NCBI GenBank assembly: GCA_027021365.1
Contig: JALUUM010000008.1
Span: 2,804-66,803 of the forward strand
Reading direction: 5' to 3'
Source of the DNA: Spirochaetales bacterium
GTDB taxonomy: Bacteria > Spirochaetota > Spirochaetia > SZUA-6
DNA: 64,000 nucleotides
Each line of letters starts with the position of its first letter. Within the stretch, counting starts at the first letter, position 1. Made by a program: the position numbers and the translations under genes. Positions 1-17,543 of the stretch are shown here, piece after piece. The notes beneath the pieces are model-generated. The model did not search any database. It saw only the letters and a list, made by a program, of their open reading frames with translations, and was not told the DNA's origin.

Positions 1-1580
1 TGTGGATCCAGTCTTGATAAGAGAAAAACTAACTTATGTAATACCCCCATAGGGAAAGCACCAGAACCCACAGCAGGGTCCAATACCTTTAAATTATTAA
101 TGGATTCAATAACTAAATCAGTTTCCTCATCGGTAAAAGGATTAAGCTCGCTATTAGATGAAAATAAATCCTCTAACTTCTCATTGAAATTAACTATCTT
201 ATTATCAAGCTTTGCTCTAAAATATTCTTTCAAAGATTGTTCAACCATATAATTTACAATAGGCCGAGGTGTGTAATAACTCCCTGTCGTCTTTCTCGCT
301 GTAGTTGCTGTTTCAGGGTTATAACTGGCTAGTAGGTTTTCAAAAACTCTCCCTAACAGTTCAGGATCTAGTGCAACCTCTTCGTCATCCGGTGTATTTT
401 CATCAATTGTAAAATTATAAGAGCTTAAAATTGTTATTAATCCCCTTACGCGATATTTTTTCTCCTTTGTACCGTAATCGGAATTTAGATCTTCCTTTCT
501 CTCATCTGAAAAAAACAAATAATTAGGCACATTCGGTTGTTTAGAAGGGACATCAGAAAATCCATCAATCCTAATTTCTCTTCCTGTCTCATTTGATGGA
601 TCCTTTTTCGCTTTATCCAAACATTCGAATAAACCACCATTCAAGAAAGGGATATCCTTAAAAAGCAAAACCATGTCATCCGGATTTTTAAAAAGAGAAG
701 AGTATCTGTAATAGCTATGATTCATATAATCATCATTATAAAAATTATTTTTCCGTTCTTCAGTTCTAAACTTTCTCTCTTTTATGGGTATATTCAAAGT
801 AGCAAAGAAAAGATTCTGCAGTATAGCTTTATAGTAATTATTATCTTCATCAGAGAAGGATTTTAAATATTTAGAAATTTTACTTTTATTAAAAAGCTCA
901 TCTCCAATTAATCCCTTTTGCTTCATAAACCAAACAAATATCAGTCTTGTAATCAATCTTATAACTGCTATATTTCTGCCATTCTGTTCTTTTTCTGCAT
1001 CCCTGGGAAACTTTACTTTTTTTAATGCCCAAAAATACCAGTTAGCTATCTCTCTATAAAACGCTTCTGTTACTTTTTCTACACTAAAAGCTTCTTTTAA
1101 ACTATCCAGACTGGAAAAATCAGCTTCTTCAATCTGATGAATAAATGTTTTATTTGTCTCATTCCTACTAACATAATAAGTATACCTTTTAAAATTGCTC
1201 CAATCTCTTTTGCCGCCCTCTTTGGGAATATCATAAATTAATGAAAAACGAAAACTTCCTTCATCATCATAAAAAATAAATATTCCACCGGAATATTCAA
1301 TTTTATCTTTAAGTATACTTTTACCAATTTTGTATTGCTTCTTTTTACCAGAGCGCTCAGTAAGTTTTCTATTAACTTTAAAGGCATATATGCAAATCTT
1401 TTCATCAATCGATAAATCTATTTCACCTACATTTAGTCCATTACCAAAATCCTCATCTTCACCAATCTGAATCTCTTCGTTAATTGGTCGGAACCTGCGA
1501 CTTTTAATTCTAAAAAGATTGCTTAACTTTTCAGTTTCAAAATCTTGTATTAAATCCTCAATCACCTCTCGCACAGACAT
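1..1580 (-). CDS. N6-adenine DNA methyltransferase, PglX / type IIG (Eco57I-like) family; N-terminal ~526 aa only, 3' end lies beyond the window start
   Basis: Minus-strand ATG at 1578-1580 overlaps the TAA stop of the upstream helicase gene (TAATG). My translation of the reverse complement is open to position 1. It contains RLITRLIFVWFMKQKGLI (the RLIFxxFxExGLL-type helix of type IIG/PglX enzymes), TGSYYTPRPIV (motif X, YTP) and, about 65 aa later, LDPAVGSGAFPMG (motif I, DPAxGSG). Order X then I fits a gamma-class N6A methyltransferase. Not in the ORF track because it is incomplete. Confidence 0.6.
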   Translation of the reverse strand, partial: MSVREVIEDLIQDFETEKLSNLFRIKSRRFRPINEEIQIGEDEDFGNGLNVGEIDLSIDEKICIYAFKVNRKLTERSGKKKQYKIGKSILKDKIEYSGGIFIFYDDEGSFRFSLIYDIPKEGGKRDWSNFKRYTYYVSRNETNKTFIHQIEEADFSSLDSLKEAFSVEKVTEAFYREIANWYFWALKKVKFPRDAEKEQNGRNIAVIRLITRLIFVWFMKQKGLIGDELFNKSKISKYLKSFSDEDNNYYKAILQNLFFATLNIPIKERKFRTEERKNNFYNDDYMNHSYYRYSSLFKNPDDMVLLFKDIPFLNGGLFECLDKAKKDPSNETGREIRIDGFSDVPSKQPNVPNYLFFSDERKEDLNSDYGTKEKKYRVRGLITILSSYNFTIDENTPDDEEVALDPELLGRVFENLLASYNPETATTARKTTGSYYTPRPIVNYMVEQSLKEYFRAKLDNKIVNFNEKLEDLFSSNSELNPFTDEETDLVIESINNLKVLDPAVGSGAFPMGVLHKLVFLLSRLDP

Positions 1581-4500
1581 TACAATTCTCCTGCTTCATT
1601 TTTATTTCTATTCTCAATAGCAATTATTATTTCTTTTTTAAGCTCTTTGATCCTTGATTTTTCTTTCTCAAGATAATTTTCTCCAAGCTCATCCATTAAA
1701 CTTTTAAGTTCGTTTACAACTTTTTCCAAATTATCAGTTTTGATGTTTGCAATCCTTCGGAGAGTATAATCTGAGAGGGTTCCATATTCGACAATATCCT
1801 CTCTAAGACTTCTTAAAAATCTTTTAAACCTAAGCAACTCGTTATCGTTGTTTACTCTTATTAGATACTGGAGATTATTTAATGCTTTTCTCTCTAAGCT
1901 TTGTTCACTGATAGCTATTGAGACATTTTCTTTATAATCCTTAATCAATTTATAGTTTTTCCAGAAATAACTGCTAAGCGGAATTGCTTTTTCCTCTGGT
2001 CCACATTCTATATTTTCAATTACATCTTCAAGTGTTACATCTTTAGGTTTTTTATCCTTCTCTCCCAGTTCCACTATATACATACGACTTTTCCTAAAAA
2101 ATACCAGCAATTTATTTTTATCAAAATATTTTGCTACTTTTATACGTGGCGGAAAACTGTTAAGGCCTTTAATCAAATTAGGATATTCTTTCTTTATATT
2201 TTCAAATATATTCAGAATTTTTGTATACAAACTTTCCATCTCAAGATTATCTGGATTTTCCTGCAGCCGTTGATATAAACCGGATGGAGTTGGTTCCTCA
2301 TCTATATCAAATATCTTAGAATCCTCACCAAGAGCATTATGAATGAGGAACATTTTGTTCTGAGCAATTTCCCTCGACTTAACTATTTCAGCCCCCTCTT
2401 CAGTGGGAAAGAAATTAACAATATAAAGTTCGTCGAATATTTTCTTACTTATCCTGTTAATGCGGCCAAGCCTTTGAATAACTCGTACAGGATTCCACGG
2501 TATATCGTAGTTTACTATTATTCCTGCCCTATTAAGATTAAAACCTTCAGAAATCTTATCAGTACATAAGAGAATATCATGATCATTTTCCTGCTCTGGA
2601 TAAGAAGCATCAAAGTTTTTATATATCTTTTCCGCTTTTGAAGTACTTAAATCTGAGCTTATAACAAGTAATCTATCACCAAAAGCTTTTCTAAGCTTAT
2701 TTTCTAAATATTTTACTGTATCTAAATATTCAGAAAAAATAATTACTTTTCTATCTGGTTCTTCTCTTCGCAATTTGTTTAATTTTTCTATTAAACATTT
2801 GCTTTTCGGATCATTATTTACAAGAGCTAAACTGGAAAGTTTCTTTAAAATTTTTTCAAATAATTCTATATCGGATTTTATATCCTGGACAAATTTTTCT
2901 TTATATCTAAATTTCTCAATTTTATAACGCTTATGCTTCTTTGGATAAACACCATTCCTTATCTGTTCCTCATAATCTAAAAGATATTTTTCTATTTCAT
3001 CCGTATCCAATTGGTATATTTTCTCTAGCAGTGTACGATCTAAAATATATTCACCTTTATACGGGTTACCATCTCCTGTCTTTATTATAAAATCCAAAGC
3101 ATCTTCATATATTTTTTTAAAATTTCTTATGCTCTGCTCAAAGGCACCAAAGGAACTTTCAAATCTCTTGACAATCAGTCTCCTCATGAAATCAAAAAGG
3201 TTTCTTTGCTGATAGAACTCACGATTTTTTTCTAATTTGGAAATTCCTTTGTTATTATTTATTACATCATCATTATAATTCTGCGCCCCCTCTTCATATT
3301 CAAAGGGTCTATAAATTGCTCCCTTGAATTTTCCTCCATTATCAGGATCCCCAAAATATTCCTTAATAATATCATCGTAAAAATAAGATTGTTCTCTTGT
3401 TAATTCAAAAAACCATTCCTTAGGATCTGCAACTTTTGACAGATTATCAACTTCATCCTTGTAATATGGATTGTATAGTAAATCAAGGCGATTTCTTCTA
3501 ATCGTAATTGGCTCTATTACATCTCTTATTTGCTTAGCAAGATAGTGTGTTCTAGCCTTTACTTTTTTTAAATCAATTTTCTTTTCACCAAATAAGGCAA
3601 AATAATATGATTCAGCTTTTTTTCTTTTCTTTAGGTCTTTAGAATTCCAATTCTTATAAATATAACCTAATTTATAGAATATAGTCTTAAATATTCTAAA
3701 TTTATTTACAATATCATCAGTTAGAGAAATCGAAGACTTTTTAGGAACTATAAAAAGTGAAATTAACGAGAGGATATCTGCTGGGCGATTATTGAAAGGA
3801 GTAGCTGTTAGGAGAATAACTATTCTACCTCGGCAAATATTTTTTAAGATTTCATAACTTTGTGTGTCCTGGTTTCTAAATCTATGTGCCTCATCTATAA
3901 TTATGACTTCTATTTCATCGTGAGCTTTTACAAATTCAAGAGTACTTTCTAAATCACCTAAAGATCTTACCTCCCAATCATGCAGACCAAATTCTTCCAT
4001 ATATTTCATCCACCCGGTTTTCTTATTTTTATCCCCAATAATACCAGGAGGACAGATTACAATTCCTCGTTTTCTTAATTGTTTTGCAATAGCACTGGCA
4101 ATTACAGATTTTCCTAACCCAACAACATCAGCAATAACAACACCATTATGGTTATCTATAACTGCTAATGCTTGTTGAACAGCATCAAGTTGATACCTAT
4201 ATGGTTTATAACCATTCTTCTCTAATAAATTTATTAATGTTTCACCAATTTCTTTTTGCTGAAAAGAATCTAAATAGCTTTTTAACACTAAACAGTAAGC
4301 TTCAAAGGGGGTAATCTCTTTTATTATGGTTTCATTTTCAATTAGTTTTATTAATCTTTTTTTTACTTCATTATCTTCTGTTATTTGGACTCCTTTTTCC
4401 CAAAGATCATCAAAATAATCCTCTGCATCTTCAAACCCATAATCAGAAATCTCAACATTAAATTCATCCTGTATTGTCAAACCTAATTTTGTTAAATTAC

Positions 4501-4969
4501 TGCTACCTGTAATGAAAAGGTTTCTTCTTCCAATCTGCTGAGATTCCAGTTTAAATAAATACAATTTAGCATGATTAGGATTATATGTTTTCCTTATTAT
4601 TAATCTATCTTCTTTGATAAGGTTTATAAAATATTTTATCTGTTCATAAAATTCTTCATTGTCAACATCATCAGAATTCAGTGTTTTTTTAACTGAGTTA
4701 AAAAAGAATTCTAACCTCTCCTCATCTGATAAATTATTTGTTTTCTCCCCATACTCTATTAATCCCAGATTAGTATTATCAACATTAAGACCAACCAATA
4801 CTTTTAAAATAACATTAGGATTATTTCTTAAACCTCTGTATAACTCCCGAATTCCAGAAAAGTAGAAAAAACCTACAAGAAATTTAAGTTCTTCACTTCC
4901 TCCAATTAATTCTAAAAGGCGTTTTTTTAGGTTCTTATTTGTACTATTATTTGTAATAAAATTTGGCAT
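1580..4969 (-). CDS. PLD-family nuclease fused to an SNF2-family helicase (1129 aa)
   Basis: N-terminus has NPNHAKLYLF...ITGSSNLT (HxK...GSxN PLD/HKD motif). Helicase motifs DVVGLGKSV (I), IIIDEAHRFRN (II, DEAH), LLTATPFNN (SNF2 motif III) and QRLGRINRIS (VI). Start ATG lies 3 nt after the stop of the upstream gene; stop overlaps the start of the methyltransferase gene. Confidence 0.85.
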   Translation of the reverse strand: MPNFITNNSTNKNLKKRLLELIGGSEELKFLVGFFYFSGIRELYRGLRNNPNVILKVLVGLNVDNTNLGLIEYGEKTNNLSDEERLEFFFNSVKKTLNSDDVDNEEFYEQIKYFINLIKEDRLIIRKTYNPNHAKLYLFKLESQQIGRRNLFITGSSNLTKLGLTIQDEFNVEISDYGFEDAEDYFDDLWEKGVQITEDNEVKKRLIKLIENETIIKEITPFEAYCLVLKSYLDSFQQKEIGETLINLLEKNGYKPYRYQLDAVQQALAVIDNHNGVVIADVVGLGKSVIASAIAKQLRKRGIVICPPGIIGDKNKKTGWMKYMEEFGLHDWEVRSLGDLESTLEFVKAHDEIEVIIIDEAHRFRNQDTQSYEILKNICRGRIVILLTATPFNNRPADILSLISLFIVPKKSSISLTDDIVNKFRIFKTIFYKLGYIYKNWNSKDLKKRKKAESYYFALFGEKKIDLKKVKARTHYLAKQIRDVIEPITIRRNRLDLLYNPYYKDEVDNLSKVADPKEWFFELTREQSYFYDDIIKEYFGDPDNGGKFKGAIYRPFEYEEGAQNYNDDVINNNKGISKLEKNREFYQQRNLFDFMRRLIVKRFESSFGAFEQSIRNFKKIYEDALDFIIKTGDGNPYKGEYILDRTLLEKIYQLDTDEIEKYLLDYEEQIRNGVYPKKHKRYKIEKFRYKEKFVQDIKSDIELFEKILKKLSSLALVNNDPKSKCLIEKLNKLRREEPDRKVIIFSEYLDTVKYLENKLRKAFGDRLLVISSDLSTSKAEKIYKNFDASYPEQENDHDILLCTDKISEGFNLNRAGIIVNYDIPWNPVRVIQRLGRINRISKKIFDELYIVNFFPTEEGAEIVKSREIAQNKMFLIHNALGEDSKIFDIDEEPTPSGLYQRLQENPDNLEMESLYTKILNIFENIKKEYPNLIKGLNSFPPRIKVAKYFDKNKLLVFFRKSRMYIVELGEKDKKPKDVTLEDVIENIECGPEEKAIPLSSYFWKNYKLIKDYKENVSIAISEQSLERKALNNLQYLIRVNNDNELLRFKRFLRSLREDIVEYGTLSDYTLRRIANIKTDNLEKVVNELKSLMDELGENYLEKEKSRIKELKKEIIIAIENRNKNEAGEL

Positions 4970-4971
4970 AT

Positions 4972-5766
4972 TTATTTCCTCTTAATAAAATCTATATCCG
5001 TTTCTTTGCACTTTCTCTTTGTCTGGTCAAAGGTTACAGGGGAATAGTAGGTGCCCGGGTCCTGATATATATCCAGGCCACGGCCAGGAATAATCCTCCA
5101 GCCTTTATCAGTTTCTATCGAACGGTCATGAAGCTTGTCATCGAACTCATATTTAAAATTTATGTTGAGCTCATCCAGGGCCTTTTTTAGCTCTTCAAGC
5201 TTGTGTATCTGTTTCTCTTTTTCTTCTTCTGTAGATTCGTGCCCTGTAACCAGAGTAACCTCTATTCTTTCTTCACCAGGTTTCTTATCCGGTAAGATAC
5301 TACAGAAGGCAACAAGATTTTTTATCTGGTACTCTTTTCTAATGTAGGCATCTCTTATAATAATTCTACACGCATCCTTAATGTATGGATAAAAGAGGTT
5401 CTTATAGGAGTATCCTGTTTCATTCTCACTAATTCTAATTGTCATCTCCTCCGGCTCCCTGTAAGGATCAAGTTTTCCCTCCAATGGTTTTTCAGGTTGG
5501 CTTTTAGGTCTTTCGCCGCTTTCTTCTAAGGTTTTCCCTTTTTCTGTTAAGTTGTCACCTGCTTTCCCTACTATCTCTTTTACCCTGCCTATTTTCCCAT
5601 CTTCAAGTTTAACCATTATCCCATACGGATGAAATTGAGCTTTTGTAAGTATCTCGCTAACCACTCCTTCGAAGGTATTGCCGCTTCTATAGTCTCCCTT
5701 TAAAGCAATTCTAACTTTAAGCCCAGGCGAGATGTTGTCTCTGTAATTGCCCCGATCGTCAGGCAT
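4972..5766 (-). CDS. YwbE/DUF2196-like N-terminal domain fused to an uncharacterised C-terminal domain (264 aa); first gene of the defence-like operon
   Basis: Residues ~15-65, KVRIALKGDYRSGNTFEGVVSEILTKAQFHPYGIMVKLEDGKIGRVKEI, match the small YwbE (TIGR03833-like) fold as I remember it. The C-terminal half contains HDRSIETDKGWRIIPGRGLDIY, reminiscent of an MIT_C / degenerate PLD-like fold; uncertain. Followed by an AT-rich promoter-like region at 5767-5876. Confidence 0.45.
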   Translation of the reverse strand: MPDDRGNYRDNISPGLKVRIALKGDYRSGNTFEGVVSEILTKAQFHPYGIMVKLEDGKIGRVKEIVGKAGDNLTEKGKTLEESGERPKSQPEKPLEGKLDPYREPEEMTIRISENETGYSYKNLFYPYIKDACRIIIRDAYIRKEYQIKNLVAFCSILPDKKPGEERIEVTLVTGHESTEEEKEKQIHKLEELKKALDELNINFKYEFDDKLHDRSIETDKGWRIIPGRGLDIYQDPGTYYSPVTFDQTKRKCKETDIDFIKRK

Positions 5767-5876
5767 AGTTATACATTCTCTCCAACATCTCTAATAATAC
5801 TTATTAAGAGAGAATTATCAATTAAGTTTTATATATAGTCTTCATATGGAGCTTCATCTTTCCCTCACTTCCGCCC

Positions 5877-6497
5877 TTACTTCCACACAAGGTCGAGAAA
5901 GAGCGATGTGGCTGCTACAGATTCACCTTCTATAAACATATAATTGGCAGCGATGCCGATATCCAGGCCAAAGCCGGTGTATTTGTTCAAAAGGTCGTAA
6001 GCTGCAAAGAGCTTTACCCCGTAACCGAAAGAACTTACTGTAGATGTTCCGACATTGGAGACCGCGACTATTCTTGAAAGCCCTGCACAACTTCCCAGGG
6101 AAAGGCCTCTGCCAAAGGGATAGTACTTTATACCGGGGGCAAAGAGATAAGTATTTAACTGCATGTAATAACCGTAAACGTCTTCTAAACGATCACCGAT
6201 TCCAGTTGCAGACAGTAAAAAATAGGCGTTACCAGTAATGTACCAGCCTAAATTGACATTCAGCATAAGAGAGCCCCTTTGAAGGCCATAAGAGGCTATG
6301 TAAGCAAGGTATGCATCTGTATCCGATCCATAACTTAGCCCCACCATGCCTCCGCCAATCTCAAAGAGGAAACCCCGCTTTTTCTCGATTGACTCTGGTG
6401 AGTCCAATGGGTCTGACAATTGGTCGGAACTAACGTATTCGCTCCCGCCCACCAGTAACAGCGAGAGAACAATCACCACTAAATTAAACCTCTTCAT
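5877..6497 (-). CDS. putative outer-membrane beta-barrel protein with signal peptide (206 aa)
   Basis: N-terminal hydrophobic signal (MKRFNLVVIVLSLLLVGGS). Gly/Tyr/aromatic-rich alternating pattern typical of small OM barrels. No specific family recognised. Confidence 0.4.
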   Translation of the reverse strand: MKRFNLVVIVLSLLLVGGSEYVSSDQLSDPLDSPESIEKKRGFLFEIGGGMVGLSYGSDTDAYLAYIASYGLQRGSLMLNVNLGWYITGNAYFLLSATGIGDRLEDVYGYYMQLNTYLFAPGIKYYPFGRGLSLGSCAGLSRIVAVSNVGTSTVSSFGYGVKLFAAYDLLNKYTGFGLDIGIAANYMFIEGESVAATSLFLDLVWK

Positions 6498-6955
6498 TAT
6501 AAAACCTCCTATTCTAACAAATCCGAAATACGTAAACTGAACTGCAAAATCTGTACCAGGGCATTAAGGATGGCTCAAACCGGTGTTATCGAGGATAAGA
6601 GATATTTTGCTTATAAAAAAATGAAACTTTAGTTTCTCCGGAAGTAACTGAAGTTATTTTAAATAGTTGAAAAAGGTTGTAACTTTAAAAGAATAAAGAT
6701 TGGTTGTATTAATCCCAGGATTCTAAGCTCACCTTTTCCCACTCATCATTTATAATTTTATCTTCATTAGAAGTGTATTTGTAGCCTTCAATGAGAATCT
6801 TATCTAATTTCCGAAGATCTTCATTAGTCATAATTTAATATACATACTCTGCTCATAAGATACCATCGGTTTCTTGATCAACCCAACAATTATTGTTAAT
6901 ATTTCAATCCCTACAAATTATAGTTCACTCTAAAATATTTAAGAGGAGTTTTCTT

Positions 6956-7363
6956 ATGTCACAGGAAAAGGTAAGAGAGATAATTAGCGATTCCCAGTTT
7001 GCAGTTCTTGCAACCTCAGTAGATGGGCAGCCCAGGGTAAGGCCCATGAAGTTTGTTGTAACCGATGACTTTAAGTTCTGGTGTTCAACAGTCAACATAA
7101 GCGGGAAGGTTAAAGAGTTAAAACAGAACAACAGGGTGGAAATATGCTGGGTGGACAGTAAAAAGAATCAAGTTAGAGTAGAGGGAATAGTCGATATAAG
7201 CGGCGGTGCAGATAAAAAGAGAAAGCTCTTCGAACTGCATCCCGGGATGCGGAGGCTGTTCAAGGACGAGTACGATCCCAAGCTTGTTCACGTGGAGGTC
7301 GTTCCTACCAATGTAAGATGGAAGGAACCGGGCTTCTGCGAATATCACAAGGTTGATATTTAG
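6956..7363 (+). CDS. pyridoxamine 5'-phosphate oxidase-like FMN-binding protein (general stress protein 26 type)
   Basis: MSQEKVREIISDSQFAVLATSVDGQPRVRPMKF... matches the PNPOx-like split-barrel pattern. AGGAG RBS 8 nt upstream of the ATG at 6956; the ORF-track start at 6893 lacks an RBS. Confidence 0.6.
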   Translation: MSQEKVREIISDSQFAVLATSVDGQPRVRPMKFVVTDDFKFWCSTVNISGKVKELKQNNRVEICWVDSKKNQVRVEGIVDISGGADKKRKLFELHPGMRRLFKDEYDPKLVHVEVVPTNVRWKEPGFCEYHKVDI

Positions 7364-7415: not shown

Positions 7416-7850
7416 TTGCAAAAGCCACTTCTTTATCTTAAAGTAATTAAAGTGAAGGATACAATCGACATAGTAAAGGAAATAATCAACTCGAAAAGAG
7501 GGATAACTTTAGCCATTCTCTATGGCTCGTTTGCCACAGGAAGAATCACTCCCGGCAGTGATATCGATATTGCAGTAGCGGCCAAAAACCCTATGTCTCC
7601 GGAAGAACTTGCAGAGATCAACCTGGAAATATCTGAAAAAACAGGAAGAAATACCGATGTAGTGGATTTAAACAGGGCAGAAGGAATTCTACTGAAAGAG
7701 ATTCTAACCAAGGGTAAACTTTTAAAAAAAGAAGACAGTAATCAGTATGCCAAGTTTATCATAAAGATGTTGGATTATCAGGAAGACATGGCTCCAAATG
7801 TAAGGCACATACTCAATACGAAAGTAAAAAGGTTTCTAAAAAATGGATGA
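7416..7850 (+). CDS. minimal nucleotidyltransferase (MNT, MntA-like antitoxin of HEPN/MNT modules)
   Basis: GSFATGRITPGSDIDIAV is the Pol-beta-type GS...DxD NTase signature. The gene overlaps the downstream HEPN gene by 8 nt. Confidence 0.75.
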   Translation: MQKPLLYLKVIKVKDTIDIVKEIINSKRGITLAILYGSFATGRITPGSDIDIAVAAKNPMSPEELAEINLEISEKTGRNTDVVDLNRAEGILLKEILTKGKLLKKEDSNQYAKFIIKMLDYQEDMAPNVRHILNTKVKRFLKNG

Positions 7851-8085
7851 TGTAGTTTTAAATAAACTGGAATCTCTTACACGTTGTATAGGGAGGATAG
7901 AATCAAAACAACCTTTTTCCGTAGAACAATTAAAAAATAATTATGACTTGCAAGATATCATTTCCATAAACTTAGAAAGAGCAATTCAACTGTGTGTGGA
8001 TATTGGTTCTCACATTCTGGCTATAAAAAACTTGCCTGCTCCAAATTCCTTAAGAACCACCTTTAAAACCCACGTGGAAACATAA
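7843..8085 (+). CDS. HEPN (HepT/DUF86-like) protein, apparently C-terminally truncated (80 aa)
   Basis: NLERAIQLCVDIGSHILA aligns with the central helix of HepT. The protein stops before the expected RNxxxHxY (Rx4-6H) catalytic motif, and no frame downstream restores it. Confidence 0.55.
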   Translation: MDDVVLNKLESLTRCIGRIESKQPFSVEQLKNNYDLQDIISINLERAIQLCVDIGSHILAIKNLPAPNSLRTTFKTHVET

Positions 8086-8171: not shown

Positions 8172-10034
8172 ATGCTTTCGCTGTGGCACGTATCATGCTT
8201 ACAGATTTGTGTCATGACATCCACCGGAATCACAGAAAAGCCAGTATCAATGGGAAACCAAATTTCAAAGCTCACAGAAAAGCTAAAGCAAATCCCAAGG
8301 GAGGAGCTCCTGGCTTCGCCGGGCTTATGGATAAGAATTGGGAGTTTTTATATCCTCAACTATGAAGATTCCAAAGGGAATCGATCGAAGAGGCTTGTAA
8401 AGGCATACGGTGTAAGCAACAACTGGAAGGGTATCGGGTCCGGAGGCTCTTATTACGGGAAAACCAGTTATTACGGCGGCAAGAATCAACTTTATTTGAA
8501 GACCTACTGTTACCTGAAAGAGGATAACAGAACCTTCAGGTTGGACAGAATTGTCTCTATATACAAGGCAGACTCGCTTTTGGCCTCCGGGTACCAGGCC
8601 TGGGAAGTCCAGGCGGCTTTGAACTTGAACAGGGGAGCGACCGCAGAGGCCGGGTATGCGCCGGCCAGTAAGAGGCATCCGCCTGTACAGCAGGATACGC
8701 CTGCCAGCGAGAAGGTATCGGCAGGCAAGGACTACCTGCCGGCACAGCAGGTAACGGCACAGCAGGATACGTTGGCCCGAAAGAGATACCTGCCGGCACA
8801 TCGGGGTAAATTCGTCTGCAAGCGCTATATACCCAAAATGGCTGACACGGTGAAGGCGGTTTCTGCCTACCTGGATGAGAGTGACCCGGACATACCAAAT
8901 ATAAAGGAACAAAAACGTAGAGAGAAGGCTGCCAAAAGGGCCGAGAGAAGAAACAAGATTTTCAACTTTATTATTGGCCTTTCTGCCTTTCTGCTGTTCA
9001 TGAACTGGGGATACTTCCAGGAACTCTTTACAGGTATCGTGGAGTTAGTAATCGACGAAGTCACGCCACCCTACAACCATAGCGTAAAACCACCGGTCGA
9101 TAGCACGAATCAAAATCAAATCTCCTACGAGAAGATAGAAAAAATCATAGAGGAGCTGGAGAAGGAGAGGCAGAAAAGCCTGAACAATAACAATAAAAAG
9201 GTAAAACCATTCAGTTTGGAAGATATTCCCGATATAGACCCGGAAACCATAGCATCGTACAGAGAGGTGGTGGCAAGTATCAACAAGTCTGTCGGGAAAA
9301 TCCAGCACCAGGAAAATAAGAAAAATCAACAAAATCGGAAGGGGAAGCAGAAGAGGCCAAGGGCATTAAGGGTGGTAAGAGAAATCGAGTACAGGGGTAT
9401 TACCATACAGGAGGTCGATACCGAATATGGAAAAAGATATTTGGCACCGGAACTGTCGATGGAGAACTTTTCACTCGATTACATGAAAGAAGAAATAAAC
9501 GATTACCTCTTTAGGGAAAAAACCGGAATAGACGATTTAAGTGTTCTTATCCTCTACAAGAGTGCCGATGAGAACGGGGACTTCCGATTATCGTGGGACG
9601 AAATACAGGATTTTCAAAATGAACTTTACCGAAACTACAAGTACAAGTCGAATCCAATTGCACTGCGGCCGGACCAGTTTATAGAACAGGATGGCGGCGA
9701 CTGTGAAGATTGGGCATTAATGACCGCCGGGCTTCTTAGATACTGGGGTTACACACCGTATATCGGAACACTTGCATATTATCAAAGGGCGAATCCTGGC
9801 CATGCCCTCTGTCTCTTATACTCTACGACTCCGCCCCCTTCAGGCATGGACTACCTGCATATAAGGGAGAATGATCCCCTGCGCACTTTTAATTCTGATG
9901 TAAAGCCAGGTTACTATGTGCCAATTGATTACACTGTGGTAGGTGGATACTCAAGGGTAATAACAGCTTCAGGTTACAAATGGTACTATGACATGATATA
10001 CGTACCGGAAAAAATCTATGGAATGGTGATGTAA
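8172..10034 (+). CDS. multidomain membrane protein: N-terminal WYL-like domain, one TM helix, coiled-coil, EF-hand-like loop, C-terminal transglutaminase-like cysteine-protease core
   Basis: LYLKTYCYLKEDNRTFRLDRIVSI matches the WYL...R.FRLDRI signature. A single hydrophobic helix IFNFIIGLSAFLLFMNWGYF is preceded by a K/R-rich stretch (N-in). DENGDFRLSWDE is an imperfect EF-hand loop. GGDCEDWAL...LLRYWGYTPYIG...GHALCLL matches the GxCxxFA...R..G.P.R...H transglutaminase-like triad. The true start may be the Met at 8250. Confidence 0.6.
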   Translation: MLSLWHVSCLQICVMTSTGITEKPVSMGNQISKLTEKLKQIPREELLASPGLWIRIGSFYILNYEDSKGNRSKRLVKAYGVSNNWKGIGSGGSYYGKTSYYGGKNQLYLKTYCYLKEDNRTFRLDRIVSIYKADSLLASGYQAWEVQAALNLNRGATAEAGYAPASKRHPPVQQDTPASEKVSAGKDYLPAQQVTAQQDTLARKRYLPAHRGKFVCKRYIPKMADTVKAVSAYLDESDPDIPNIKEQKRREKAAKRAERRNKIFNFIIGLSAFLLFMNWGYFQELFTGIVELVIDEVTPPYNHSVKPPVDSTNQNQISYEKIEKIIEELEKERQKSLNNNNKKVKPFSLEDIPDIDPETIASYREVVASINKSVGKIQHQENKKNQQNRKGKQKRPRALRVVREIEYRGITIQEVDTEYGKRYLAPELSMENFSLDYMKEEINDYLFREKTGIDDLSVLILYKSADENGDFRLSWDEIQDFQNELYRNYKYKSNPIALRPDQFIEQDGGDCEDWALMTAGLLRYWGYTPYIGTLAYYQRANPGHALCLLYSTTPPPSGMDYLHIRENDPLRTFNSDVKPGYYVPIDYTVVGGYSRVITASGYKWYYDMIYVPEKIYGMVM

Positions 10035-14031: not shown

Positions 14032-16368
14032 TTAAGCCTTAAAGTCCACTGCCGGCGGTGGGAGCATCGTTACCCCTCCCCTCCCTTTGAATGCCTTAAG
14101 CACCTCGTCCTTTGCAGACAGGTAAAGTATCTGCCAGCCAGAGCCTGCCAGGTCGAAGAGCATACCCATCTGCCTTTCAAACCTCTTCCTGTCGGACTTC
14201 AAAAAAGGATCATCCAGTATGAAGAATCCCTTCTCCTCCCCGAAAAGGCTCTCTGCAAATGCCAGGCGTATCGCAAAGTAAAGCTGATCGTAGGCACCAC
14301 CCGAAAGCTGCCCTGGCTCGAGCTTCACCCCGTCCCGCCTCCAGACACGTATCTTCTGATCCTCCCTTCCCGCATCGTAATCGACTTCCCTGTAAAGCCC
14401 GCCCGAGATGCCGGCAAAAAACCTGCTAACGGCACTCTCCCTTCCGAATAGCTTCCTTATCTTGTCCTCGTCCTCCCTCGCAATATCTTCCAACAGGTTG
14501 ATACTTTCCACCGCCGCCTTCCTCCTCCTGATGGCAGCAGAGCGGAAGTCTGCAACCGCTTCCCTTGCATGAACCAGATCTTCAAGTGCCTCAACCGCAA
14601 ATTGCTTACTGTCGAGCAGAATTTCATTAGCCCTCCTGTCGAAATAATTCAACCTGCCACTGTAACCTTTAAGCTCTCTCTCCGTCTCCTCTATCTCTCT
14701 CTCTGTCTCCGAAAGCTTCCTCTTGGCTTCCTCGAAGGTCGACTCGGAAAACCTTATGCCGGTTTCACTTTCATCCTCCCCTTCGGTTTCTTTCTCTATG
14801 GCCTTTCTAATTGCAGTAAGCCTTTCCTCCCAGGTTGAAAGGGCTTCATCCGTGGTGGCCCCGCCGGTACCAAGCTCCGTTTCCAGGGTGCGGCGATAGC
14901 TCCTCACCTCAGCCTCCAGGCCTCTCTTTTCTTTAAGCCTCTCTTCGTAGTCCTCTATGCTCCCAACCCCTCTCTCCTTAAGGACTGCCTCTATCATCCT
15001 CATATCCCTCCGGATACTCTCCTCGAGCCCGGATATCTCCTCCTCCATATTTTTAAGCCGGTAACTTTCACCTGTTATCCTTTTTTCAAGGCCATCCCTG
15101 AACTCACCCTGTTTCTTCACTTCACTTTCGAAGCTATCTATAACAGACTGAAGCTTGTTCACATCACTCACTATAAAACCAAGCTCGGCTGCGGCATTCA
15201 AAAGAGCTGCCTCAGATTTCTTTAACCGGGAACGGGGAAAGGCTACCCAAAACAAATACACCAGTAACGAGGCAACGGCAAGGACAGCAAAGCCCACCGC
15301 CAGAAGCGTAAGTGCCGACACAAACTGGAACAGGGCTCCGAGGCCGGTAAATATCAATATGGAGATCATTAGAATCCCGGAGAGTGTCTCACCGACGCTC
15401 TTTCTCTCTACCAGTCCGTGGTACTTTCTTACAGGCTCTTTCAGGTTATCCTCGACCTTTTTGAGTTTATCCTCCGATACCTTCAGTTCGACATTCCTGC
15501 TTTCAAGGTCAGAGCGGTATTTCTCTATCCGTTCCGACTGCATGGCCTTCGTGGACTTTAGGCTTGCTATTCGAGCCTTCGACTCATCTATCCTTTCAAC
15601 CGCCCTTTTAAGCTTGTTCAACTCGTCGTCATTGTAAGATTTAAGTTCCTCCAACCTTGAACTATCAGATTTCAGTTTCAGCAGGGCATCCATGTTTTTC
15701 CGGTAGTGTTCCCTCTTTCTTGCCTCCTCCAAAAGTATTATCTGCCGGGAGAAGTTGTCCCTTTCCTCCCTTAAGGCGACGAGTTTTTCTTCGAGCCTGT
15801 CATAACCCTTGCTTCTCGCTTCACCTATGAAATCCTCCGCTTCTTTCAGAAACTCTTCGGCCTTCTCGAACCTCTTCCTTAAGTATGCGGTATCCTCGGT
15901 ATTCTGGAAATCACCTTTCGGGGTAATCTTTCCTATTACCCTGATATTCTTGACTATCTCGTCTATCCTCTGCCTGTTCAGCCCGGTAAGCCTCTCGCTT
16001 ATGCTCCTGTAGAACATGGCCTCCTCGGGAATCACCAGGTCACTGTTGGTTATTACGAAGAGGTCCCTGAACATCTCAGGGCTCACATCGATATGGTCGG
16101 TAATGCTTCCCGAAGAGGGGAAAACGAGCAGTTCTCCGTTCCTCTCCACCGTTATCCTACCAACGGGATTCTCCTCCACCCTCTGCAGTTCTCTCCAGTT
16201 CTTCAGCCTCTTGAACTTCTTTCCCAGAAGCAGTTTCAGTATAGCCTCTATTGTAAGAGTCTTTCCGTCCTCATTCTCTCCCCACAGGAGGGATATGTTT
16301 CCCGGCTTCAAGGGCTCCCCGTAGGAGATCGGGCCGTAGCTGTTTATCAGTATTTCCCTAAGCTTCAT
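14032..16368 (-). CDS. SbcC/Rad50-like SMC-type ATPase with a central two-helix transmembrane hairpin (YhaN/SbcE-like)
   Basis: Walker A GENEDGKT at the N-terminus. Long coiled-coil regions. Two consecutive hydrophobic helices mid-protein (ILMISILIFTGLGALFQFV / LTLLAVGFAVLAVASLLVYLFWV). C-terminal signature QLSGGAYDQL and Walker B FFILDDPF. Confidence 0.8.
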   Translation of the reverse strand: MKLREILINSYGPISYGEPLKPGNISLLWGENEDGKTLTIEAILKLLLGKKFKRLKNWRELQRVEENPVGRITVERNGELLVFPSSGSITDHIDVSPEMFRDLFVITNSDLVIPEEAMFYRSISERLTGLNRQRIDEIVKNIRVIGKITPKGDFQNTEDTAYLRKRFEKAEEFLKEAEDFIGEARSKGYDRLEEKLVALREERDNFSRQIILLEEARKREHYRKNMDALLKLKSDSSRLEELKSYNDDELNKLKRAVERIDESKARIASLKSTKAMQSERIEKYRSDLESRNVELKVSEDKLKKVEDNLKEPVRKYHGLVERKSVGETLSGILMISILIFTGLGALFQFVSALTLLAVGFAVLAVASLLVYLFWVAFPRSRLKKSEAALLNAAAELGFIVSDVNKLQSVIDSFESEVKKQGEFRDGLEKRITGESYRLKNMEEEISGLEESIRRDMRMIEAVLKERGVGSIEDYEERLKEKRGLEAEVRSYRRTLETELGTGGATTDEALSTWEERLTAIRKAIEKETEGEDESETGIRFSESTFEEAKRKLSETEREIEETERELKGYSGRLNYFDRRANEILLDSKQFAVEALEDLVHAREAVADFRSAAIRRRKAAVESINLLEDIAREDEDKIRKLFGRESAVSRFFAGISGGLYREVDYDAGREDQKIRVWRRDGVKLEPGQLSGGAYDQLYFAIRLAFAESLFGEEKGFFILDDPFLKSDRKRFERQMGMLFDLAGSGWQILYLSAKDEVLKAFKGRGGVTMLPPPAVDFKA

Positions 16369-17543
16369 CTTGTCACCCTCATAATTGCCCTCATAAGGAT
16401 ACGCTGCATAAGGAACCTTGTATCATCATCGACCTGCATCGCTTTCAACTTTTTCATAAAGCGGACATAGATTTCATCGGAGAGGATCTTTCCAACATCG
16501 TGAAACTCGAGAGCGGGAACCTCCATTTCAGGAATTTCAAGGGCCCTGCCCAGCTTCTCTATCTCTTTTGCAAGCCTCTCCTCGGAGACCTTCCACCTCT
16601 CCCCGTCGAAATAGCCTCCTACTCGTAGAAGCAGAGAGGCGCCTTTCGGTGCCGCTTTCAGTGCCGCTTCAACCCTGGCTACCGGCGACTGCCTGTCGAA
16701 GGGTGAAAGCTCCACATCTACCTCCTCGTAGTGGAAAGTATCAAGTTCAAGTTCTTTGGGCTCCCCACCCGGCTCCAGGACATTCACCTTGCGTATTCCT
16801 GTCTCCTTGCTGGTAATCGATACAGGGGAACCCGGGTAAACGAAAAAGCCTGTGCTGGTTTTCCCGGCTTCAGTGCTTTTGCGGCTCTCCCCACCGGCAC
16901 CGGAGCCTCCGCTCTGGCGAACCTGTTTGCCCCCTCTTTTTTCCCACCCGAAGGTGCTCACTGAAAAATTCGTATGGAAGTGGCCTGCAAGTATGTAGCG
17001 CCAGGGAAGTTTCTCGAAGTAGGAGAGTTTCACGGGGTGGTACCTCTTCTGACCTTCGTCCCCGTAACTTGTCCAGTCACCGGAAACATCTAACAGCTCC
17101 CCGTGAAAGAGGAGAATAGAGTTTTCACCCATCCCGACTCCCTGCGAAAGGGATTTCAGCGTCGCAAGGGTATCTTCCTTCTGCATCCCGGAAAAGGGAA
17201 GGCCCCAAACTTCGGGAAAGCCTTCGGCCTTAAAGGGTTCACCCGGGTTCCTTATTACATGCACATTGGCTCCGAAATAGGCCCCCTTAGGGAAAGCTTC
17301 CGCATCGTGGTTACCGGGAATAATTACCACCCTCCCTTTGAATCTCTCGAAGAGAGCCCTTATCTCGTTACGAAGTTCCTCCGCTGCCCTAAGAGAATCA
17401 AAGAGGTCACCGCTTATCGTAATCATCCCGGCCCCGGTTTCATTGGCCTTTTCTATAACCCTTTCCAGGGCCTTCCACCTGTATGAGTGAAACCTATTCT
17501 TCTTTTCGGTTAAGTGGATATCTGCCGTATGGATTATTTTCAT
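16365..17543 (-). CDS. SbcD/Mre11-like calcineurin-type phosphoesterase nuclease (YhaO/SbcF-like)
   Basis: MKIIHTADIHL, GDLFD and GNHD metallophosphatase motifs. Start overlaps the SbcC-like gene by 4 nt. Confidence 0.85.
   Translation of the reverse strand: MKIIHTADIHLTEKKNRFHSYRWKALERVIEKANETGAGMITISGDLFDSLRAAEELRNEIRALFERFKGRVVIIPGNHDAEAFPKGAYFGANVHVIRNPGEPFKAEGFPEVWGLPFSGMQKEDTLATLKSLSQGVGMGENSILLFHGELLDVSGDWTSYGDEGQKRYHPVKLSYFEKLPWRYILAGHFHTNFSVSTFGWEKRGGKQVRQSGGSGAGGESRKSTEAGKTSTGFFVYPGSPVSITSKETGIRKVNVLEPGGEPKELELDTFHYEEVDVELSPFDRQSPVARVEAALKAAPKGASLLLRVGGYFDGERWKVSEERLAKEIEKLGRALEIPEMEVPALEFHDVGKILSDEIYVRFMKKLKAMQVDDDTRFLMQRILMRAIMRVTR

Follow-up and report, generated by a model that had tools for sequence, protein, structure and literature searches.

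A 64,000-nucleotide stretch of the genome of a Spirochaetales bacterium (GenBank assembly GCA_027021365.1, contig JALUUM010000008.1), analysed here as a whole and referred to as the window, begins with an operon of three genes on the minus strand. Genes 2 and 3, which encode a helicase with an N-terminal nuclease domain of the HKD/phospholipase D (PLD) type and a type IIG-like N6-adenine methylase, respectively, probably form a self-contained, horizontally mobile, ATP-dependent restriction–modification (RM)-like module of a split type ISP or type III-like kind, with gene 1 as a rare accessory. An earlier note on this DNA had offered two interpretations, a new variant of the BREX (bacteriophage exclusion) or DISARM (defence island system associated with restriction–modification) systems and a helicase-coupled restriction system, and it is the second that fits the evidence. 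The genes are as follows:

4972–5766, minus strand: gene 1, fusion of a YwbE and a MIT_C domain, 264 residues (open reading frame, Pfam)
1580–4969, minus strand: gene 2, HKD/PLD-SNF2 helicase, 1129 residues (open reading frame, Pfam, PADLOC)
1–1580, minus strand: gene 3, N6-adenine methylase, first 526 of 1170 residues (open reading frame); the rest lies at 14968–16902 of the extended contig L001, beyond the window edge

The coupling of the three genes is borne out by their open reading frames (ORFs), overlaps and ribosome-binding sites. The stop codon of gene 2 overlaps the start codon of gene 3 by 1 nt (TAATG), as had been described, while the gap between the stop of gene 1 and the start of gene 2 is 2 nt (TAA-AT-ATG) and not 3 nt, a trivial correction. 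Shine–Dalgarno-like GAGG/AGGAG motifs were found 8–12 nt 5′ of all three starts, those of genes 2 and 3 being located within the preceding gene. A scan of the minus strand from 1 to 7000 gave no terminator-like site, and one promoter-like site was observed 5′ of gene 1:

5794–5821, minus strand: candidate operon promoter, sigma-70-like TTGATA-16-TATTAT, 10/12 matches, 28 nt 5′ of the gene 1 start (consensus scan)

This candidate is suggestive only, since consensus matches across the region are not above the shuffled expectation.

The window edge truncates gene 3. An exact-match search with the helicase led to the source contig, ENA k141_446998 (165.5 kb, with the window starting at base 2402; L001), and the same operon is present on a second contig, L002. 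On both contigs the full gene 3 is intact, with 1170 residues, a motif IV reading VIGNPPYIQ and a TaqI_C domain, and the gene set of a canonical BREX or DISARM system is not present after it. The only feature 3′ of gene 3 is a fragment of an IS3-family OrfA (HTH_Tnp_1) at 16928–17370 of L001, after a degenerate 177-nt tandem duplicate of the 5′ end of OrfA. Further copies of this 5′ end of the insertion sequence (IS) were not found within the window.

The domain assignments made earlier for the three proteins were correct by Pfam, except that the MIT_C domain of gene 1 had gone unrecognised. In gene 2, a PLD-like N-terminus precedes the helicase of superfamily 2 (SF2):

4496–4573, minus strand: HKD catalytic motif region of gene 2, H133-x-K135...G155-S-S-N158, invariant in an alignment of 20 helicase sequences
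2330–4207, minus strand: SF2/SNF2 helicase core of gene 2, about residues 255–880, with motif I GLGKS, motif II DEAH, TATP and QRxGRxxR

Judged by its HxK...GSxN motif, the N-terminus belongs to the PLD/HKD nuclease superfamily, and many homologues pass the PLDc_2 model (PF13091) and match RE_NgoFVII (PF09565). Helicase motifs I, II and VI are intact and likewise invariant across the 20 sequences. The core scored 39.6 bits with SNF2-rel_dom (cut-off 24.9) and 69.4 bits with Helicase_C (cut-off 23.5), and also matched ResIII; beyond it lies a conserved C-terminal stretch of about 250 residues. Sequence matches in the PDB were ISWI, Sth1, Chd1 and RapA. In PADLOC, the best whole-length model was C3a139, "HKD+Snf2" (1e-31 over residues 109–891), whereas the matches to DrmD, BrxH, HmaA, DpdE and ZorD were limited to the C-terminal lobe of the helicase. 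Gene 2 is predicted to be the restriction and translocase subunit.

As previously claimed, motif X (YYTP), motif I (DPAVGSG) and the RLITRLIFVWFMKQKGLI helix are found in the visible part of gene 3. Pfam assigned Eco57I, N6_Mtase and TaqI_C to the full protein, and the PADLOC type IIG model (REase_MTase_IIG, 6e-125) matched far better than DrmMI (1e-27) or PglX (4e-21). The domain order is a restriction endonuclease (REase)-like N-terminal domain, a helical domain, a gamma-class methyltransferase (MTase) domain and a TaqI_C-type specificity domain. Among 46 full-length methylases, NPPY is fully conserved and YYTP and DPAVGSG are kept in at least 95%. Median identity to the window protein is 46–53% over the N-terminal, helical and MTase domains and 20% over the last 370 residues. 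This drop in the TaqI_C region is the pattern expected of diversifying target recognition.

Relatives of the operon were obtained by scanning one genome per species, which gave helicase relatives in 419 genomes. The best 80 loci (L003–L082, 59–65% identity) were then studied: ORFs were called and searched with the window proteins, and neighbours were clustered. Recurrent neighbour families and large downstream ORFs were scanned, and singleton ORFs in part. A methylase homologue lies 3′ of the helicase, on the same strand, in 73 of these 80 loci, which come from more than 15 phyla. Six of the seven other contigs end too early, and the seventh, L045, has 1.7 kb of downstream sequence without a methylase. 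Carriers are found in Omnitrophota, Elusimicrobiota, Nitrospirota, Planctomycetota, many members of the candidate phyla radiation (CPR/Patescibacteria), Bacteroidota/Ignavibacteria, Smithella/Syntrophales, Gammaproteobacteria, Actinomycetota, Clostridia, Fusobacteriales, Spirochaetia and others. The helicase family itself comprises more than 6000 clusters at E < 1e-10, hundreds of them with 63–70% identity over the full length. The arrangement had been taken for one not seen before. With a family of this size, 419 species genomes, a PADLOC model of its own and an entry for the pair in a published table (PMC9881135), that claim could not be upheld. One of the few cultured carriers, the isolate Melioribacter sp. 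OK-6-Me, has its helicase broken into ORFs of 612 and 433 residues (L065, 10001–13381), probably a pseudogene, with an intact methylase of 1212 residues downstream.

Helicase and methylase are directly coupled in 34 of the 73 loci, mostly by a 4-nt overlap, and the TAATG of the window is of the same kind. In another 35, one or more variable genes stand between them. The embedded genes encode RhuM-Fic/DOC, DUF1016/YhcG, PDDEXK_3, Bro-N, DUF4062-HATPase_c_4, SLFN AlbA_2, ORF6N, AAA_14-DUF4143, DUF3800, AbiEi_3, GIY-YIG and NYN proteins, as well as a nucleotidyltransferase (NTase) with a small unannotated partner, a putative NTase+HEPN pair. The junction is a hotspot for accessory and defence cargo, with the same repertoire as described for loci of type I RM, BREX and Hma; insertions were reported in 66.5% of Hma loci (PMC11232893). 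The content directly 5′ of the helicase is variable (RNase_T, HEPN, Mrr_N or LigT), with a tightly linked upstream ORF in 14 of 66 loci. Downstream neighbours of the pair include OLD/Gabija-like pairs, AAA_13 and SIR2_2 proteins. In two unrelated genomes, a Gabija-like pair (OLD-family ATPase-TOPRIM and UvrD-like helicase) comes right after the methylase (L018, 13276–15898; L027, 10665–13433).

No other recurrent family was found in more than 6 of the 80 loci, and a homologue of gene 1 was found in none. Neighbour clustering and scans of the large downstream ORFs in the 80 loci did not reveal DUF499, PglZ, BrxC or DrmA/B. Most of these large ORFs were of the OLD family, AAA_13 or SIR2, two (1147 and 1244 residues) had no Pfam match, and none was DUF499. 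Since the pair recurs without other shared genes, the conserved functional unit is the helicase–methylase pair, residing in defence islands.

These data bear directly on another explanation, namely that only part of a larger known system is seen here, be it Type-2 BR/Hma-like, BREX type 3 or class 1 DISARM, and that its other genes (the DUF499 ATPase and DUF3780, PglZ/BrxC, or DrmA/B, respectively) lie beyond the IS. Both contigs do stop inside the IS3-like element, 220–470 nt after the methylase (about 470 nt on the window contig), Type-2 BR systems use an HKD-Swi2/Snf2 helicase together with an N6-MTase (PMC12839542), and gene 2 has partial PADLOC matches to DrmD, BrxH and HmaA. However, in the 73 loci with flanking sequence neither an ATPase of DUF499 size nor PglZ, BrxC or DrmA/B recurs, and the three partial matches are to a generic helicase C-terminal lobe, far under the curated cut-offs. 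Very little probability is therefore left to a truncated larger system.

The N-terminal domain of the methylase was examined with an AlphaFold2 (AF2) model of residues 1–420 (mean predicted local distance difference test, pLDDT, 84), which shows an alpha/beta domain of about 140 residues followed by the helical domain. The best structural match of these 420 residues was MmeI, but Foldseek against the PDB gave nothing below E = 0.03. A conserved D...(D/E)xK was not found in this domain: the strand expected to carry ExK, the third beta-strand in the model, has the consensus LxxCxFxV. Conserved residues are E53 and those of an ERxGKK loop (E75, R76, K79 and K80). From sequence and model, the N-terminus is probably an inactivated REase-like domain kept for another role, such as docking of the helicase. 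It could be argued instead that the methylase is a self-sufficient type IIG/IIL enzyme with an active N-terminal nuclease, the HKD-SNF2 protein being auxiliary or independent (type IV-like or anti-evasion). Its strong matches to the REBASE-derived PADLOC type IIG models, a layout like that of MmeI, DrdV and BpuSI, and an N-terminal domain with 46% median identity and conserved charged residues would agree with this, and elsewhere PLD-helicase fusions work on their own, SauUSI-type enzymes being an example. Nevertheless, the lack of a conserved canonical motif, with LxxCxFxV at the third strand, argues against it, and the invariable pairing of the helicase with this methylase clade, often by overlapping codons, fits subunits of one enzyme better. 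A self-sufficient methylase is therefore considered unlikely.

Some of the related loci have split methylase genes or extra downstream ORFs that are methylase fragments (L005, 19085–21233; L013, 15126–17379; L017, 16705–17043; L031, 16127–16888; L032, 16594–18357; L035, 7102–8469). Possible explanations are alternative cassettes for the specificity domain, phase variation and decay. Programmed inversions have been reported for the Cj0031-like kind of methylase (PMC9881135), and no convincing inverted-repeat cassette for inversion of the specificity domain was detected in the methylase gene of this genome. In addition, some homologues of the methylase N-terminus (P0177, P0180 and P0254) were found with a Y1 transposase domain (PF01797, RayT-like), which suggests insertions of, or fusions to, transposases associated with repetitive extragenic palindromes.

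Gene 1 consists of two domains joined by a variable linker:

5572–5751, minus strand: YwbE/DUF2196 domain of gene 1, residues 6–65, a small SH3-like beta-barrel (Pfam; AF2 model with pLDDT 85.5 and four strands)
4981–5415, minus strand: MIT_C PLD-like domain of gene 1, residues 118–262 (PF16565, 145.5 bits, cut-off 25)

The N-terminus scored 79 bits with PF09962 (cut-off 25) and 83.1 bits with TIGR03833 (cut-off 63.4). The MIT_C domain matches the human MITD1 chains 2ymb and 4a5z in the PDB at E = 2e-21, with the HDR(E/S)I motif inside the matched part, and residues 76–263 match positions 508–695 of 698 in the PADLOC BrxL model PDLC02508 (E = 2e-42). Across 16 homologues, H213 and R215 do not vary, and both D139 and D214 are kept in at least 90%. 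The earlier statement that gene 1 stands outside described systems thus needs qualifying, since many BrxL proteins end in the same domain as gene 1. This "HDR/HRD" PLD-like BrxL domain was counted in 1030 of 2913 type-1 BREX taxa (PMC12839542) and has no demonstrated enzymatic activity (PMC12065111).

The fusion of both domains is rare: 12 clusters were retrieved from 5.8 billion proteins by a word-indexed search, and an exhaustive HMMER scan of 1.84 billion representatives (clusters at 50% identity) gave 1879 MIT_C-type matches with only about 6–8 full-length YwbE+MIT_C fusions. In every context examined (about 10), an SF2 helicase adjoins the gene 1 homologue or lies within two genes of it on the same strand. 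The homologue is mostly directly 5′ of the helicase, often with overlapping stop and start codons. Three contexts were distinguished. In L083–85, L087 and L088 the helicase is HmaA (SNF2 + NOV_C; PADLOC HmaA 1.7e-197). In L089 it is a divergent HKD-SNF2 protein accompanied by a type IIG methylase, 31% and 28% identical to the window proteins. The third context is a four-gene module beside Dnd/Ssp phosphorothioation genes, made of a PLDc_2 protein (318–322 residues), YwbE-MIT_C, an SF2 (PbeA-like) helicase and a GHKL (HATPase_c_3) ATPase:

L086, 7052–12189; L090, 935–6077; L091, 1727–7641 (L091/92); L093, 484–4969; L094, 2646–8170: four-gene PLDc_2/YwbE/helicase/GHKL module

In the L094 module, YwbE is fused to SLFN AlbA_2 in place of MIT_C. 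Identity of the module with SspFGH was considered and ruled out, SspFGH being described as a Walker-A protein and an FtsK-like protein; the module resembles MORC-type RM operons (PMC2292703). On this sequence evidence, gene 1 looks like a portable helicase-associated accessory and not like a core part of the system in the window.

Base composition also separates gene 1 from the pair. Genes 2 and 3 have a GC content of 0.30–0.31 and a third-position value (GC3) of 0.22–0.23, compared with a GC3 of 0.40–0.6 in the genes around the operon. For gene 1, GC and GC3 are both 0.40, equal to the window mean, and the AT-rich block therefore stops at the junction of genes 1 and 2. A separate history of gene 1 fits this difference. 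The operon had been described as far more AT-rich than the region at 8–17 kb (GC 0.44–0.53), which is correct for genes 2 and 3 and not for gene 1. Moreover, the window is a mosaic, with GC around 0.50 at 14–17 kb and 53–62 kb and 0.32–0.41 at 20–50 kb, so low GC by itself is a weak sign of recent acquisition in this genome.

The relation of gene 1 to the pair can be understood in different ways. The model of the earlier note treated the three genes as one obligate system of a new BREX/DISARM-like kind with the YwbE-MIT_C protein in its core. The tight coupling, a single promoter-like site 5′ of gene 1 with no internal terminator, the presence of a gene 1 homologue upstream of the divergent pair in L089 and the MIT_C domain shared with BrxL variants of BREX speak in its favour. 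Nevertheless, only the pair recurs in the 80 closest loci, where it is complete without gene 1, the gene 1 family is also attached to unrelated helicase modules, base composition differs, and BREX or DISARM signature genes were found neither on the extended contig nor in the related loci. A single obligate system is quite improbable on this evidence. At the other extreme, gene 1 may be functionally unrelated, either resident or separately acquired, with incidental coupling. The GC boundary (0.40 versus 0.30) that falls exactly at its junction with gene 2 and its absence from the 80 loci are compatible with that view, and defence islands do juxtapose unrelated genes; on the other hand, its homologues stand beside a same-strand SF2 helicase of one of three families in every context examined, and the 2-nt gap places the ribosome-binding site of gene 2 inside gene 1. 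This makes incidental coupling doubtful.

For the pair, interpreted as a split type ISP/type III-like RM module, the following mechanism is proposed. The methylase would bind a short asymmetric site through its specificity domain and methylate host adenine. At unmethylated sites it would recruit or license its HKD-SNF2 partner, with which it is predicted to interact physically, and the latter would translocate double-stranded DNA with ATP. Since the methylase N-terminus lacks the canonical D...ExK, cleavage would fall to gene 2. In PLD nucleases, two HKD motifs make one active site. With a single HKD half-site per helicase, two copies would be needed, and cleavage might occur when two HKD domains meet. 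Collision-dependent cutting is the mode of type ISP and type I enzymes, and in CglI/NgoAVII a helicase-like ATPase drives a PLD nuclease. Gene 1 may act with the helicase as an auxiliary or back-up PLD-fold nuclease or as an adaptor; an "auxiliary/backup effector" has been put forward for BREX-related loci (PMC12839542).

A more far-reaching proposal is that YwbE-MIT_C is a portable, helicase-dedicated accessory with a Tudor/SH3-like barrel, whose "HDR" PLD-fold domain is an active nuclease, serving alongside the translocase as a second nuclease in at least three unrelated modification-dependent defence modules, and, separately, that the HKD-SNF2 and methylase pair is a minimal, split type ISP-like enzyme class. 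The three modules that the gene 1 family may serve are the HKD-SNF2/IIG methylase pair, Hma/BR, and the GHKL-helicase-PLD module beside Dnd/Ssp. This proposal is tentative, possible but with the balance somewhat against it.

Several points weigh against these interpretations. The PLDc_2 match of gene 2 (PF13091, residues 123–190) scored 26.2 bits, just short of the cut-off of 27. Further genes could lie beyond the IS3-like element in which both contigs end. The predicted interaction of helicase and methylase is read from their conserved adjacency, and the module is known here through its sequence, every mechanistic step being a prediction. With respect to gene 1, its GC content suggests that it was acquired separately from genes 2 and 3, the role given to it is guilt by association in about 10 contexts, and in human MITD1 this domain is known to bind membranes, with no catalysis demonstrated (PMC12065111).

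It was also considered that the pair might serve a non-defensive purpose, either epigenetic regulation or DNA repair and remodelling. SNF2 proteins such as RapA have housekeeping roles, and phase-variable type IIG methylases can regulate (Cj0031 literature cited in PMC9881135). However, gene 2 has an intact nuclease motif and the methylase a hypervariable specificity domain, the pair is spread patchily over phyla at about 60–65% identity, and toxin and abortive-infection genes are embedded in loci that have defence-island neighbours. A non-defensive role of the pair is extremely unlikely in view of these features.

Occurring in no fewer than 419 species genomes that belong to more than 15 phyla, CPR included, the pair is among the more widespread helicase-coupled RM-like modules, and the literature searched mentions it only in passing. 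PADLOC labels the methylase "type IIG" and covers the helicase with the uncharacterised entry C3a139. If proven to be a split type ISP/type III-like enzyme, the pair would establish a novel architecture among restriction enzymes, could supply new specificities for methylation and cleavage, and would add one more locus type to those that host embedded defence genes. YwbE-MIT_C offers a testable handle on the MIT_C/"HDR" domain of BrxL variants and human MITD1. If the proposal for gene 1 were true, it would support a prokaryotic immune-nuclease origin of the PLD-like domain of MITD1 and an enzymatic role for the C-terminal domain of BrxL.

The operon is flanked by the IS3 OrfA on one side and by an MNT/HepT pair on the other. 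The latter, a toxin–antitoxin of the MNT/HepT type by Pfam, is located at 7416–8085 on the plus strand, about 1.6 kb from the operon, where a nucleotidyltransferase (Polbeta/NTP_transf_2, 144 residues) overlaps a HepT-like HEPN protein (80 residues). It is followed by an ORF of 620 residues (8172–10034, plus strand, GC 0.46) with weak WYL and transglutaminase-like Pfam matches, all under the cut-offs; WYL domains are frequent regulators of defence loci. Synteny upstream of gene 1 between the window and L088, which would have suggested modules exchanged at a fixed locus, was looked for and is not supported: the signal-peptide ORF at 5877–6497 of the window and the OMP_b-brl gene of L088 show no similarity (BLASTP E = 1.8).

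In comparison with known systems, no name or experimental characterisation of the two-gene system was found in the searchable literature, a search that did not extend to REBASE and subscription journals. Three components of class 1 DISARM (DrmD, DrmMI, DrmA, DrmB and DrmC) have counterparts in the operon, namely the SNF2 helicase, the large N6A methylase of the Eco57I type and the PLD nuclease, and there are the partial DrmD and DrmMI matches. The DISARM signature genes DrmA and DrmB (DUF1998) were not found on the extended contig or in the 80 related loci, the NCBIfam DrmD model NF038317 gave 140 bits against a cut-off of 610 for gene 2, within residues 585–865 only, and the PLD domain is fused here. 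For BREX types 1–6, PglZ and BrxC/PglY were not found on L001 (ending in the IS 470 nt past the methylase), on L002 or in the related loci, and the BREX-1 PglX model NF033452 gave 22 bits against a cut-off of 500 for the visible 526 residues of gene 3. The proposed new BREX/DISARM-like variant is not supported by these results. Gene 1 shares the MIT_C "HDR" domain with BrxL variants and MITD1, but has neither the AAA+/Lon-like body of BrxL nor a MIT domain; it carries an N-terminal YwbE barrel, stands alone, and is found beside SF2 helicases rather than in BREX loci.

CglI/NgoAVII resembles the pair in combining an NgoFVII-type PLD nuclease, an SF2 ATPase and a separate methylase. In that system the methylase is a small stand-alone enzyme, and the nuclease has its own B3-like DNA-binding domain and is separate from the ATPase, whereas here nuclease and helicase are fused and specificity would presumably come from the recognition domain of the methylase. 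With type IIG/IIL enzymes (MmeI, DrdV, BpuSI, Eco57I and Cj0031), the window methylase shares the domain order and the Eco57I and TaqI_C domains, combining MTase and specificity domain in one chain as they do. The canonical D...ExK, however, is not conserved in its clade, and the classical enzymes need no HKD-SNF2 helicase, while this methylase family is always paired with one. Type ISP enzymes (LlaGI, LlaBIII) show the same set of activities, namely a nuclease, an SF2 double-stranded DNA translocase, a gamma-class N6A methylase and an IIG-related specificity domain, but in a single polypeptide with an Mrr/PD-(D/E)XK nuclease instead of two genes and an HKD/PLD nuclease; a PDB search gave no sequence match to LlaGI or LlaBIII chains at E ≤ 0.001.

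The nearest described relatives are in two recent papers. Type-2 BR systems, the HKD-helicase branch of the DUF499-centred/Hma group (Rakesh & Krishnan, NAR 2026, PMC12839542), share the N-terminal HKD endoDNase-Swi2/Snf2 protein and the N6-MTase with the window, and common to both are a predicted RM-like logic and, in many loci, nuclease genes of an embedded or auxiliary kind. The defining gene of BR systems encodes the DUF499 AAA+ ATPase, and Type-2 also has a DUF3780 gene in 98% (PMC12839542). In contrast, the DUF499 (HmaC-like) ATPase was not found here or in the 80 related loci, and DUF3780 was absent from the window operon and from the recurrent neighbour families scanned, a scan that did not take in every singleton ORF. 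The methylase here has 1100–1250 residues and a type IIG/IIL layout, and the HmaA model fits only the C-terminal lobe of gene 2. Table 3 of PMC9881135 (2023) lists Cj0031-like type II RM genes with an adjacent "phospholipase D (cd09178) + SNF helicase" coding sequence. The gene pair has thus been on record since 2023, the Type-2 BR systems of 2026 are related to it, and the most novel element is the accessory that recurs with the helicases of three unrelated modules.

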